From a virus: a stretch of DNA of 64,000 nucleotides. The stretch spans positions 1 through 64,000 of IMG/VR virus record IMGVR_UViG_3300034104_004584; one strand, given 5' to 3'. Within the stretch, counting starts at the first letter, position 1. Each line of letters starts with the position of its first letter. Below the pieces are notes generated by a model. That model was not told the DNA's origin and did no database searches. It saw nothing but the letters and a program-made list of their open reading frames with translations. This document shows, piece after piece, positions 42,232 to 45,066 of the stretch. The position numbers were made by a program, and so were the translations under genes.

Positions 42232-42516
42232 ATGGATAATATCGTCAGTTTAAACAAAGAGTACAGCTTTTTGTATACTGAATTTATTGATAAAAATATC
42301 TATATCTTACCTAAAAATGAATTCTTTCCAGAAAACAAAACATTTGTTTTTATAGGAAAAATGAAATTTAAATACAAAATTAAAAGAATACAACCGGTGT
42401 CCACCACTAGTGATGGGCATCTTTTTTGTTTTACTCCTAAGATTTTAGGAACTTATCACTTAGAAGTCTATGAAGGTAAAGATCTTCTAGATACTTTAAA
42501 AATAGAGGTAATATAA
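42232..42516 (+). CDS. hypothetical beta-rich protein (94 aa)
   Basis: Track ORF; its stop overlaps the start of the acyltransferase gene. Confidence 0.5.
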   Translation: MDNIVSLNKEYSFLYTEFIDKNIYILPKNEFFPENKTFVFIGKMKFKYKIKRIQPVSTTSDGHLFCFTPKILGTYHLEVYEGKDLLDTLKIEVI

Positions 42517-43871
42517 TGTATCAACTTACTGCGATAGATTATGAGTTTTATAAAGACATAGACAACCATAGTTCTGTAGTTGGAAATATATGTATATTAT
42601 CAAACAAAAGTGGCAAAAGAATAAAAGATCAGATTCTAAAAAATATAGAAAAAAACATCAACTCAAGCATAATTCACAGTCATAAAATAGTCCCAAGTAC
42701 AACGTTTAAAGACTATCCTTTTTTTATAAAAGATAAAAATTTAAATATAAAAGATCACATTTATGAACACTTTTCTGACAAATCAGATATTAAAAGTAGT
42801 TTAATATATAGAGATATTATTTCATCTGCTCTAGACCCTGATGCACCGCTATGGGATATTCACATAATATACGGAATAAATGAACAAGATGACACCGCAA
42901 TCATAAGAAGATATCACCACTGCTTGGGTGATTCAGATGCTCATCAAAATGTTCATAACATTATTTTTGACAATTATTCTGGCAAAAAAATAAAGAGCAA
43001 CAAAAAAATAAATAAGTTAAATTCTTTTTTTAACCATTTTTATAAACTAATTAAAAGTTATTTAATTTTAATTTATGGTTTTATTTTTAAAATAAACCAC
43101 TGCAATGAGTCTTATAAGATTGATAAGAAGCAAATACATAAAGGTCAATTTAGACTTAAAAAGCATAAGCAAAATAATATAAGCTTTTTTTCGCATGATA
43201 TTTCTAGTTTAAAAAACAACTTAAAGAAAAATGATGTAACTATCCTAGAGATGTGCATGTACATTACATCATCAATCTATAAGCAGCTACTGCCTACTTC
43301 TGAAGATAAAACAATCTTAACAATGTTTCCAATTTCATATAGAAAAAGAAAACATCCCAACTGCAATAACATGGCTACAGCAGCAAAAATTAATCTTCAT
43401 TTAGACGAAAAAGATAGTCATAAAAGATTAATTAAAATTAAAAAAGAATTAAGAAATAAAATAATAATTCTTAAAAAAGGTCCACATGTAGTTTATGATA
43501 GAGCTTTTGGTGTCGATCCTAGGATAAGTAAGTTTAAAAGAAATTGGGATATATTCAATAAAGCTAATTGGCACGATAGAAAAAAAATATATAAAAAAGA
43601 CGATTCTTTACCAATGATATCTACAACAACTTCTTTTAAGAAGAACAAAGACGATGTCGGACTATTGTCAGATGACTATGTAAAAGAAGTCTACAATTTT
43701 AGCACTATAAGCAAGACAGTATTTTCTACAGGGTGCTCTATCTCGTATAGATTATATGGAGACAAGTTAAATATTGGAGTAATTTATTCTGAAGACTTGT
43801 ATTCAGATAGTCAGATTTTTAAAACTTTATTTGAAAAATCTATAGAAGAATTTAAAAAAGTTTGTGATTAA
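42516..43871 (+). CDS. WS/DGAT-like (condensation-type HHxxxD) acyltransferase
   Basis: 451 aa; N-terminal LTAIDYEF, PLWDIHIIYG, and HHCLGD at 42915..42932, resembling wax-ester synthase/DGAT. Confidence 0.55.
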   Translation: MYQLTAIDYEFYKDIDNHSSVVGNICILSNKSGKRIKDQILKNIEKNINSSIIHSHKIVPSTTFKDYPFFIKDKNLNIKDHIYEHFSDKSDIKSSLIYRDIISSALDPDAPLWDIHIIYGINEQDDTAIIRRYHHCLGDSDAHQNVHNIIFDNYSGKKIKSNKKINKLNSFFNHFYKLIKSYLILIYGFIFKINHCNESYKIDKKQIHKGQFRLKKHKQNNISFFSHDISSLKNNLKKNDVTILEMCMYITSSIYKQLLPTSEDKTILTMFPISYRKRKHPNCNNMATAAKINLHLDEKDSHKRLIKIKKELRNKIIILKKGPHVVYDRAFGVDPRISKFKRNWDIFNKANWHDRKKIYKKDDSLPMISTTTSFKKNKDDVGLLSDDYVKEVYNFSTISKTVFSTGCSISYRLYGDKLNIGVIYSEDLYSDSQIFKTLFEKSIEEFKKVCD

Positions 43872-43872
43872 T

Positions 43873-45066
43873 ATGAATTTACAAGAAGATTATTCAGAAT
43901 TTTTAGAAATAACATTAAAGTCAAAAGATGATCAATATAAATATTTTGATGAAAAAAAACAAAAAGAACCAATATTTAAAATAAAAAATGATCATTGGAT
44001 AGTGTCTAGATATGATGACATTAATACAATATTAAGAAGTGATAGCTTTTTAAGAATGACTGACCCCAACGAAAATGATCCTGTTAGATCACTTTTGGAT
44101 TTAGATTTTGAAGATCATAGCAAATATAGAAAAATGTTAAATCAAGTTTTTAACTCATCTTTAGTTAAAAAATTAAAGATAGAACAAAAGGTTGAAGAAA
44201 ATTTAAAACAAATAAAGAGCAAAGAAATAATAGACGTAGTTAAAGATATAGCGGTACCAGTTCCTCTCCAGGTGATAATGGAAATACTAGGTGCACCCAT
44301 GCCGCAAGAAGAAGAAGCTTTATTAATCAAAAGCTGGGCTAGTAATATATTTAATTCAGTTGGTGTTCACATAACCAGAAGTGGCTACAAGCAGTACATA
44401 GAGGATATGGAAAGTTTGTGTACATATTTGATTAATGTAATATTTAGTGATAAATACAAAAAACAAGATGGATTAATTAACTATTTAAAAAATTATTATA
44501 TTGATGGCAAAAAAATAACCAACCAAGAAATCTTGTCGATATGTGCGTTGATATTTGTTGCTGGCTTTGAGACAAATGTTGGCTCAATAACCTCTTCTAT
44601 CTTTAGTATTGCTCAAGATGAAGAGCTTTTATCTAATTTTCAAAATCTGCAAATTCAAGATAAAACATCTCAAATTTCGGATGAGCTGATAAGACACTCT
44701 TCTAGTGTTTGCTATGCAGCAAGAAGGGTTGGCCAAGACTATGTGTTTTACCAAGATTCAGATAATCCGGTATTTTTATCAGAAGGTGATTTCGTCCTTG
44801 CACACCTAGAATCTGGCAATAGAGATTCTATGATATTTGAAAGTCCACATGATATAATTCTAGACAGACACAATTCAAATAAGCATCTAGGTTTCGGGGT
44901 TGGGGTGCACTACTGTTTGGGAGCCATGCTAGCCAGAGCAGAAGTGTCTCCAGTGGTTGATTACTTTTTTAAAAATGTTAAAAATCCAAGAATTACTGGA
45001 AACCCGGTAAGACATCCCAGTTATGCTATTAATGGCTTTTCTGAGTTATGTGTGACGACAGGTTGA
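43873..45066 (+). CDS. cytochrome P450
   Basis: Heme loop FGVGVHYCLG (Cys codon 44914..44916), I-helix AGFETN, ExxR ELIRH; ATG 43873 is 2 nt after the upstream stop (the track uses GTG 43864). Confidence 0.85.
   Translation: MNLQEDYSEFLEITLKSKDDQYKYFDEKKQKEPIFKIKNDHWIVSRYDDINTILRSDSFLRMTDPNENDPVRSLLDLDFEDHSKYRKMLNQVFNSSLVKKLKIEQKVEENLKQIKSKEIIDVVKDIAVPVPLQVIMEILGAPMPQEEEALLIKSWASNIFNSVGVHITRSGYKQYIEDMESLCTYLINVIFSDKYKKQDGLINYLKNYYIDGKKITNQEILSICALIFVAGFETNVGSITSSIFSIAQDEELLSNFQNLQIQDKTSQISDELIRHSSSVCYAARRVGQDYVFYQDSDNPVFLSEGDFVLAHLESGNRDSMIFESPHDIILDRHNSNKHLGFGVGVHYCLGAMLARAEVSPVVDYFFKNVKNPRITGNPVRHPSYAINGFSELCVTTG

Follow-up and report, generated by a model that had tools for sequence, protein, structure and literature searches.

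A stretch of 64,000 nucleotides (nt) of viral DNA, positions 1 to 64,000 of the IMG/VR record IMGVR_UViG_3300034104_004584 and referred to here at its full length as the window, encodes a trio of genes in which a small open reading frame (ORF) is followed by an acyltransferase of the wax-ester synthase/DGAT (WS/DGAT) branch and by a cytochrome P450. Among the contexts examined, the trio is a conserved and obligately linked unit restricted to phages, and what is new is the arrangement itself, in which two known enzyme superfamilies occur in a virus-specific, obligately linked form. The window derives from a tailed phage and encodes a terminase, a portal, tail-fibre-like proteins and a tail sheath. 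As for function, we see about an even chance that the P450 and the acyltransferase act in sequence on one hydrophobic, host-derived molecule. The three genes, with protein lengths in amino acids (aa), and their first junction are the following:

42232..42516, plus strand: small ORF, 94 aa, first gene of the trio, predicted to be all-beta
42514..42518, plus strand: TAATG, in which the stop of the small ORF overlaps the start of the acyltransferase
42516..43871, plus strand: divergent WS/DGAT-family acyltransferase, 451 aa
43873..45066, plus strand: class I-type soluble cytochrome P450, 397 aa

Linkage and distribution of the gene trio

The acyltransferase gene immediately precedes the P450 gene in 14 of 14 contexts, the window included, with junction gaps of -20 to +9 nt, and neither enzyme gene was found alone in any of them. 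The 13 other contexts are L001, L002, L003, L004 (an edge fragment), L005/6, L007, L008, L009, L029, L073/78, L074/75/77, L079 and a 6.3-kb contig, the last of which is a gene listing without DNA. They are contigs of 2.9-208 kb from independent assemblies and different samples or sources, and several of them share phage neighbourhood genes. In IMG/VR, seven viral contigs bear the P450 clade. The trio is intact in L007 and L029, although neighbouring genes for proteins of 93 and 257 aa have switched side in these two loci, and the stop/start overlap or near-abutment is kept at every locus despite 25% identity.

The three ORFs were described by the first-pass annotation as an operon of overlapping or abutting genes, and all of them are present at those coordinates with a geometry of tight coupling. 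At the first junction, the stop codon of the 94-aa ORF and the start codon of the acyltransferase (ATG) have one base in common, with a GAGG 8-11 nt upstream. At the second, the acyltransferase TAA ends at 43871 and the P450 ATG begins at 43873, leaving a gap of one base; an alternative GTG start at 43864 was rejected, since P450 homologues begin at the residue matching the ATG at 43873. Coupling therefore stands, but a bounded operon does not, as promoter-like and terminator-like sites are at chance level (32 against 30.8 expected, and 2 against 2.0, respectively). The trio sits within a long co-directional gene array that runs from ~40.3 kb onwards, and, with no signals to bound it, 'operon' is best read as a set of coupled genes in a longer transcription unit.

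The first-pass annotation had paired the two enzymes; that the 94-aa ORF belongs to the unit, and that the trio is a conserved, co-diverging and fast-evolving cassette found throughout a phage lineage, goes beyond it. In every locus with sequence available, the small ORF stands before the acyltransferase. Its homologues are found immediately 5' of the acyltransferase in L001-3, L005-9, L073-75 and L077-79, and the -1 or 0 geometry of the first junction recurs in L001, L002, L003, L008 and L073. The copy in L029 is truncated to 32 aa and keeps the C-terminal signature of the family, G-x-Y-x-L-x-V...E-V. The 94-aa protein of the window belongs to no Pfam, PHROG, NCBIfam or PADLOC family; it has a sub-threshold match to the Y_Y_Y beta-sandwich (E=0.04), and an AlphaFold2 (AF2) model built from four close sequences is all-beta and unreliable (predicted local distance difference test, pLDDT, 50).

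Both enzymes are rare in sequence databases. In a protein database of 5.8 billion sequences the acyltransferase has just 16 relatives at E<=1e-3, and the P450 has ~15 clade members, after which identity falls from 35-40% to at most 28% in cellular proteins. An exhaustive profile search of 1.84 billion representatives returned just 11 proteins below 1e-30. A pattern scan for the P450 alone, covering one genome each of 185,579 species, found no P450 above 28% identity. A tblastn search of 50,697 GenBank phage records found no relative of either enzyme at E<=1e-3, no PHROGs family matched, and in the BFVD viral structure library neither enzyme had a phage counterpart. No P450 gene adjoins that of the nearest cellular WS/DGAT (P0148). 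A literature search found no paper on a WS/DGAT and P450 pair in phages, nor any on DUF6065, a family encoded just upstream of the trio. One paper on phage auxiliary metabolic genes mentions a 'P450', which proved to be a misnomer for F420 hydrogenase.

A divergent acyltransferase of the WS/DGAT branch

The acyltransferase scores 31.8 bits against the Pfam model PF03007 (WS_DGAT_cat; cut-off 23.6) over residues 21-145, and PF03007 is also the precomputed assignment of most of its homologues. A sequence search of the PDB matches just two bacterial WS/DGAT structures, and these weakly; the C-terminal half of the protein aligns weakly to 7nxg. An AF2 model based on 16 homologues (pLDDT 78.9, predicted template-modelling score 0.84) has 6chj as its best Foldseek match (3.3e-21, template-modelling scores 0.62/0.67), followed by 7nxg (6e-20). 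The motifs that define the WS/DGAT family are HHxxxDG, PLW and ND (PMC4520822), and the following elements were located in the acyltransferase gene:

42846..42854, plus strand: PLW motif (P111-L112-W113)
42915..42932, plus strand: HHCLGD of the catalytic HHxxxD motif, HHCLGDS, residues 134-140 (H134 H135 C L G D139)
43014..43094, plus strand: conserved hydrophobic/amphipathic helix between the half-domains, KLNSFFNHFYKLIKSYLILIYGFIFKI, predicted helix at residues 167-190

PLW and HHxxxD are invariant in the 16 close homologues. An alignment of 20 sequences covers, among others, six cellular enzymes, eight phage members that are very diverged and two that are more remote still; in it W113 is invariant throughout, cellular WS/DGATs included, as is H135 (20/20), and H134 and D139 reach a conservation of at least 90%. 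The last position of HHxxxDG is occupied by S in the clade of the window and by G in many diverged members. At the position of the ND motif, most of the main clade reads x-E/D, and conservation is lost in the members that have diverged furthest. The WS/DGAT-like assignment proposed by the first-pass annotation is thus borne out by a Pfam score above cut-off, by the fold and by the HHxxxD and PLW motifs; HHCLGD lies exactly where it had been placed, and the catalytic residues, which the same annotation had considered might prove absent on alignment, are there. We conclude that the protein belongs to the WS/DGAT branch as a very divergent member and is no typical wax synthase.

Two further properties are shared across loci. 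The enzyme is strongly basic (pI 9.4, net charge +24), with a net charge of +15 to +30 in every locus, and the predicted helix at 43014..43094 is a candidate membrane or lipid-surface anchor. A different identity, that of a stand-alone condensation (C) enzyme of the non-ribosomal peptide synthetase (NRPS) or PapA type, was considered and rejected: the protein has no Pfam match to the Condensation family, C domains rank below WS/DGATs in the structural comparison, and the neighbouring ORFs show no PP-binding domain at E<=10.

A cytochrome P450 outside the named families tested

The third protein of the trio scores 44.4 bits against Pfam PF00067 (cut-off 22.8) over residues 40-359, and 383 P450 sequences in the PDB match it at E<=1e-3. 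It has a pI of 5.3, no fused reductase and no N-terminal anchor. Its signature motifs, all of which the first-pass annotation had read correctly in calling the protein a clear P450, are:

44560..44577, plus strand: I-helix oxygen-activation motif AGFETN (G231, E233, T234)
44683..44697, plus strand: K-helix ExxR motif, ELIRH (E271, R274)
44893..44922, plus strand: heme-binding loop FGVGVHYCLG, with Cys348 as ligand

G231, T234, E271, R274, F341, G344, H346, C348 and G350 are invariant in 15/15 aligned sequences, cellular P450s included, and E233 is conserved within the phage clade. The conserved E233-T234 acid–alcohol pair suggests a normal O2- and NAD(P)H-dependent monooxygenase that needs a redox partner. 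With the cysteine ligand, ExxR and the acid–alcohol pair all kept, the sequence argues for an active enzyme over the pseudo-enzyme without heme binding that had been allowed for.

The best matches in the PDB are P450s of the YjiB/CYP109 type (8.6e-39 with a single sequence, ~1e-52 to 1e-54 with a profile). The nearest solved relatives are CYP109-type enzymes, PksS, CYP106 and CypX, then CYP124/125/142 and BioI, which are class I enzymes with hydrophobic substrates. Identity is ~30% or less to solved P450s and at most 28% to non-phage proteins. Conventionally, P450s are placed in the same CYP family when they are more than 40% identical. Family assignment, proposed earlier as a check, thus confirmed membership of the superfamily but gave no named CYP family (e.g. 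CYP109, CYP107, CYP106), and at less than 40% identity to all named families tested the protein would found a new one. The best NCBIfam models, all sub-threshold, are natural-product tailoring P450s; ApyO, a model for P450s that act on ribosomally synthesized and post-translationally modified peptides (RiPPs), gives 8e-08 and 31 bits against a cut-off of 525. An apparent second P450 in L073/L078 was a chance match of 31 residues, the ORF in question encoding a 2-oxoglutarate (2OG) oxygenase.

Evolution of the cassette

Both phage enzyme families are monophyletic with respect to their nearest cellular relatives (200/200 bootstraps), and the two trees, built from Poisson distances because Kimura distances are undefined at such divergence, share six internal groupings at 200/200. 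Pairwise distances in the two families are correlated (Spearman rho 0.85), the acyltransferase evolving ~1.25x faster. Monophyly and congruent trees fit one origin of the pair followed by co-divergence. Relative to the close relative L079, the ratio of non-synonymous to synonymous substitution rates (dN/dS) is 0.14 for the small ORF, 0.086 for the acyltransferase and 0.073 for the P450; such values (0.07-0.14) denote purifying selection and indicate that the three genes are functional.

These data bear on an alternative, namely that the enzymes are two unrelated accessory genes of a hyperplastic region whose adjacency reflects shared phage ancestry. All loci do come from one syntenic phage lineage, so that adjacency is partly expected by descent, and the absence of bounding transcription signals around the trio points the same way. 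This account is nevertheless quite unlikely in our view: the trio has stayed whole amid the rearranged neighbours of L007 and L029, its tight junctions have outlasted divergence to 25% identity, the trees are congruent and the rates correlated, and none of the 14 contexts has one enzyme without the other. The counts of 15 P450 cluster representatives and 16 acyltransferases (E<=1e-3) also suggest matched abundance.

The cassette has a GC content of 26-32% against about 36-39% in its flanks, a difference that could mark a piece of cellular DNA brought into a viral contig by misassembly or misbinning. Such an artefact is highly improbable. Terminase, portal, tail-sheath and tail-fibre genes surround the cassette, which recurs with the same neighbourhood on independent assemblies of up to 208 kb; the GC dip is present in every locus, and no cellular genome examined bears either clade. 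In all loci taken together, the small ORF and acyltransferase have a GC content of 24-29%, the P450 one of 27-32% and DUF6065 one of 35-39%, and since the dip is conserved in all of them a recent horizontal import was ruled out as its cause.

Divergence is concentrated in the cassette. Across loci, identity to the window is 23-59% for the acyltransferase and 27-59% for the P450, as against 49-86% for DUF6065 and 71-88% for the orthologue of a glutathione (GSH) peroxidase (46903-47517) in the flanks. In the comparison with L079, nucleotide identity is 91-96% in the flanks; it drops to 66-87% over the acyltransferase and the initial part of the P450 gene and to 78-85% over the final third of that gene. 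The low-identity stretches form a mosaic:

42554-44050: 66-87% identity to L079
44504-44953: 78-85% identity to L079

Synonymous divergence (dS) from L079 is 1.27 in the acyltransferase, 0.64 in the P450 and 0.22 in the adjacent small ORF. This sequence profile suggests, as its best explanation, recombination among diverged alleles in the cassette, and the fast, mosaic evolution hints at a role at the phage–host interface.

A cassette that diverges far faster than its flanks, with a mosaic profile, is typical of arms-race or specificity genes, and this could speak for counter-defence or detoxification. The two enzymes would then work in a manner resembling phase I and phase II metabolism, the P450 hydroxylating and the acyltransferase capping an inhibitory or signalling small molecule, and the substrate would be a secondary metabolite made by the host or its community and not a membrane lipid. 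It would also agree with the closest cellular P450s, which are actinomycete enzymes, and with the natural-product tailoring models that score best, if below threshold, in NCBIfam. We nonetheless think this scenario unlikely. To our knowledge, WS/DGATs are lipid enzymes in every characterized case, and a basic acyltransferase with a hydrophobic helix fits a lipid interface; fast divergence could equally follow differences in host lipids; and there is no likeness to a known anti-defence family, the PADLOC defence models giving just noise-level matches (E about 0.01).

Proposed function

In the reading that we favour, sequential action on one hydrophobic host molecule, the cassette is specific to a single lineage of uncultured phages whose genomes measure ~200 kb, and its three genes would be translated as a coupled unit during infection. 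Hydroxylation plus acylation of a lipid or peptide had already been suggested by the first-pass annotation, and we share that idea as a proposal. The P450 would take electrons from a host ferredoxin or flavodoxin and install a hydroxyl group. The acyltransferase would esterify a hydroxyl, taking the acyl group from the acyl-CoA or acyl-ACP (acyl carrier protein) of the host. The product might be a wax-ester-like or estolide-like lipid, or an acylated metabolite, and the reverse order of steps is also conceivable. We infer that the enzymes share a pathway, and likewise the nature of the substrate, the host partners and donors and which step comes first. The closest characterized relatives of both proteins suggest a hydrophobic substrate: they are wax-ester and triacylglycerol synthases on one side and, on the other, lipid and sterol hydroxylases (CYP109/106/107, CYP124/125/142) and BioI, an enzyme acting on acyl-ACP. 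The basic charge and the conserved hydrophobic helix of the acyltransferase also count in favour of this reading.

Several observations weigh against it. The acyltransferase scores 17.8 bits against the C-terminal domain model PF06974, under the cut-off of 20.7, and 77.6 bits against NCBIfam TIGR02946 (E 9e-22, residues 4-313), whose cut-off is 309.95. It lacks the strict ND motif, reading L-E with no Asn, and in place of the SNVPGP-type stretch of the aligned cellular enzymes it has STTTSF. With sub-cut-off scores and both of these elements missing, the acceptor, and even the donor, may not be the ones that classical WS/DGATs use. NRPS condensation domains, which come after the two WS/DGAT structures in the Foldseek search (~1e-14), have the same fold, and this likeness makes a peptide or amine acceptor possible. 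The function of the P450 is not readable from ~30% identity, and the setting of the trio, rich in 2OG oxygenases and close to tail genes, would fit protein modification as well. On the side of the favoured reading, in which the host supplies the electrons, no redox partner (ferredoxin, flavodoxin, rubredoxin or reductase) is recognizable in the 64-kb window, although ~146 kb of the genome lie outside it. This agrees with the first-pass annotation, which had noted the same absence: no Fe-S cysteine motif occurs in any real ORF of the window, and a Pfam search of 20 further ORFs gave no match.

The only Cys-rich real ORFs in the window are two small ones with paired CxxC motifs, which are zinc-ribbon-like and do not convincingly match ferredoxin or rubredoxin spacing:

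2215-2394, minus strand: small paired-CxxC ORF
10296-10469, plus strand: small paired-CxxC ORF

A bolder proposal, which we put forward tentatively and consider less probable than not, is that in a lineage of large environmental phages a new P450 family, a new WS/DGAT subfamily and a dedicated small partner form a lipid- or metabolite-tailoring pathway of the phage's own, yielding during infection a hydroxylated and esterified product beyond the ability of the host. Such a pathway might remodel the host envelope or neutral-lipid pool, or neutralize an anti-phage small molecule, and the rapid mosaic diversification of the cassette would then mirror host-specific substrates.

Gene neighbourhood

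The trio lies inside an accessory island between the tail-fibre (21826-39009) and tail-sheath (56055-57329) genes. Its neighbours are:

39006-40958 and 47517-51868: 'oxygenase island', at least seven paralogues of 2OG-Fe(II) oxygenases, prolyl-hydroxylase-like (PF13640)
40970-41680: DUF6065
41750-41977 and 41981-42211, plus strand: two paralogous small acidic ORFs of 75 and 76 aa (s75/s76)
45472..46516, plus strand: pair of ORFs of 93 and 257 aa, always within ~1 kb of the trio
46903-47517: glutathione peroxidase

Related phages add to this inventory a second GSH peroxidase, glycosyltransferases, a fusion of HAD and nucleotidyltransferase domains and a sugar nucleotidyltransferase.

The paralogy of s75 and s76 is evident from an HHalign probability of 99.3% and a common motif resembling G[IY]D[PF]E[DT]FDPDTF; a 70-aa ORF downstream of the P450 (45092-45304; HHalign 85.7%) is perhaps a remote relative of them. 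They are kept beside the trio in L001-3, L008, L009, L073 and L074, which represent the main clade, and BLAST at E<=1e-2 found none in the fetched parts of L007 or L029. Neither matches a known domain, and their membership of the functional unit is uncertain. The stretch 'LGIDxEE..DF' recalls helix 1 of acyl or peptidyl carrier proteins, an identity that was rejected, there being no PP-binding Pfam match at E<=10. The 93-aa and 257-aa pair, possibly associated with the trio, is found downstream of it in the majority of loci, L007 and L029 having it upstream. The 257-aa protein has no Pfam match. Its family has 26 invariant residues and no obvious glycine-rich S-adenosylmethionine loop in the sequence, and its profile shows a sub-threshold resemblance to class I methyltransferases of the PDB (E=0.002 over 52 residues).

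This neighbourhood is relevant to the idea that the enzymes modify a protein or peptide, by hydroxylation or cross-linking followed by acylation. Candidate targets are a virion fibre protein, the product of a small flanking ORF and a protein of the host envelope, and the 94-aa protein could be the substrate or an adaptor. Nearby tail-fibre and tail-sheath genes, the seven or more 2OG oxygenases, the glycosyltransferases and sugar nucleotidyltransferase of related phages, and the conserved small ORFs that flank the enzymes would all suit such a role, as would the fold shared with NRPS condensation domains. We nevertheless judge protein or peptide modification to be rather improbable: Foldseek prefers WS/DGATs over C domains by seven orders of magnitude in E-value, Pfam and NCBIfam both indicate WS/DGAT, no PP-binding signal appears in the flanking small ORFs at E<=10, the RiPP-type model ApyO scores poorly, and s75/s76 were not detected in L007 and L029.

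Comparison with known systems and significance

The acyltransferase resembles the bacterial WS/DGATs of known structure (6chj, 7nxg) in its CAT/condensation-type fold of two half-domains, with PLW and HHxxxD in the same places, as well as in its length of ~450 aa and its basic character. It differs in being just 11-19% identical to them, in having the extra conserved hydrophobic helix and a Lys/Asn-rich insert at about residues 335-365, and in its constant linkage to a P450 gene, which the nearest cellular member lacks. Likewise, the P450 aligns over its full length with class I P450s (YjiB/CYP109B1, 7y9o, 4rm4, 5ofq, 5l90; PksS, 4yzr; BioI, 3ejb; CYP124/125/142) and has all of their signature motifs; like them it is soluble, ~400 aa long and without a fused reductase. 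In contrast to them, at ~30% identity or less, it falls in a phage-only clade (200/200).

We know of no established substrate for any viral P450. As of 2022, viral P450s comprised those of giant viruses, Ranid herpesvirus 3 and Mycobacterium phage Adler; host redox partners have been proposed as their electron source, and neither a partner enzyme nor a redox partner was reported (PMC9405906). This short list, the lack of a PHROG match and the absence of P450 relatives from the 50,697 GenBank phages uphold the earlier statement that P450s are rare in phages. The P450 of the trio is like the earlier viral ones, Adler CYP102L1 among them, in having no virus-encoded redox partner nearby. It is unlike them in being of a different P450 class, with no tblastn similarity to the GenBank phages, a set that should include phage Adler, and in being no orphan, since it occurs throughout its lineage and is locked to a partner enzyme.

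The logic of joining an oxygenase to an acyltransferase is also met in plant cuticle pathways, which use P450s with WSD1/BAHD acyltransferases. Bacteria convert alkanes or fatty alcohols to wax esters by a comparable route, in which an alkane hydroxylase or CYP153 is followed by the HHxxxD acyltransferase AtfA (PMC13572102). In these wax-ester and cuticle routes the genes do not form a coupled pair, enzymes of other subfamilies are at work, and the products serve carbon storage or surface waxes; use of alkanes or fatty alcohols by the phage enzymes finds no support here.

If the bolder proposal of a tailoring pathway of the phage's own is true, this would be the first P450-dependent pathway of a bacteriophage with a defined partner enzyme, and the acyltransferase would be the first viral WS/DGAT. 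A P450 that is locked to a partner from a family of well-understood chemistry offers a testable handle on the role of P450s in phages. Oxidative tailoring of lipids or metabolites would be added to the auxiliary metabolism of phages and the WS/DGAT family extended to viruses, and the divergent acyltransferase and P450 would provide scaffolds for biocatalysis.

The phage genome

Further assigned genes of the window, and the groups of ORFs without Pfam assignment, are:

6254-7234, minus strand: RecA/UvsX-type recombinase
7807-9318, plus strand: FtsH-like ATP-dependent protease
17267-19138: large terminase
21826-23421 and 32012-39009: tail-fibre-like proteins
23872-25551: portal
56055-57329: tail sheath
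11634-17263, 19142-21702, 26921-31246, 50436-55970 and 57356-61148: ORFs without a Pfam match

None of the GenBank phages is similar to the window at the DNA level, and the terminase is just 32-37% identical to those of the jumbo myoviruses Moorella MTATph1 and Bacillus 0305phi8-36. Contigs bearing the same proteins reach 189-211 kb. No tRNA genes were found in the window. For 20 ORFs there was no Pfam match at E<=1e-3; nineteen of these are 150-660 aa long, and a few of the 20 were also scanned against PHROGs with no informative match. The ORFs without Pfam assignment point to a lineage remote from characterized phages.

Some features of the window concern regions away from the trio. The recombinase (6254-7234), which the FtsH-like protease adjoins, is RecA-like, being ~56% identical to generic bacterial RecA and not a typical UvsX. 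Strand orientation and GC skew flip near 7.5 kb, and the first 4 kb are GC-richer (0.44). At 37667-37798, eleven tandem copies of the 12-base unit CCTCCATTTTTT lie in the gap between a tail-fibre-like gene of 1057 aa and the next fibre-like genes. The reverse complement of this unit, AAAAAATGGAGG, resembles a Shine-Dalgarno sequence, and the ORF caller turns the array into a spurious 79-aa 'SLHSFLH' repeat protein.

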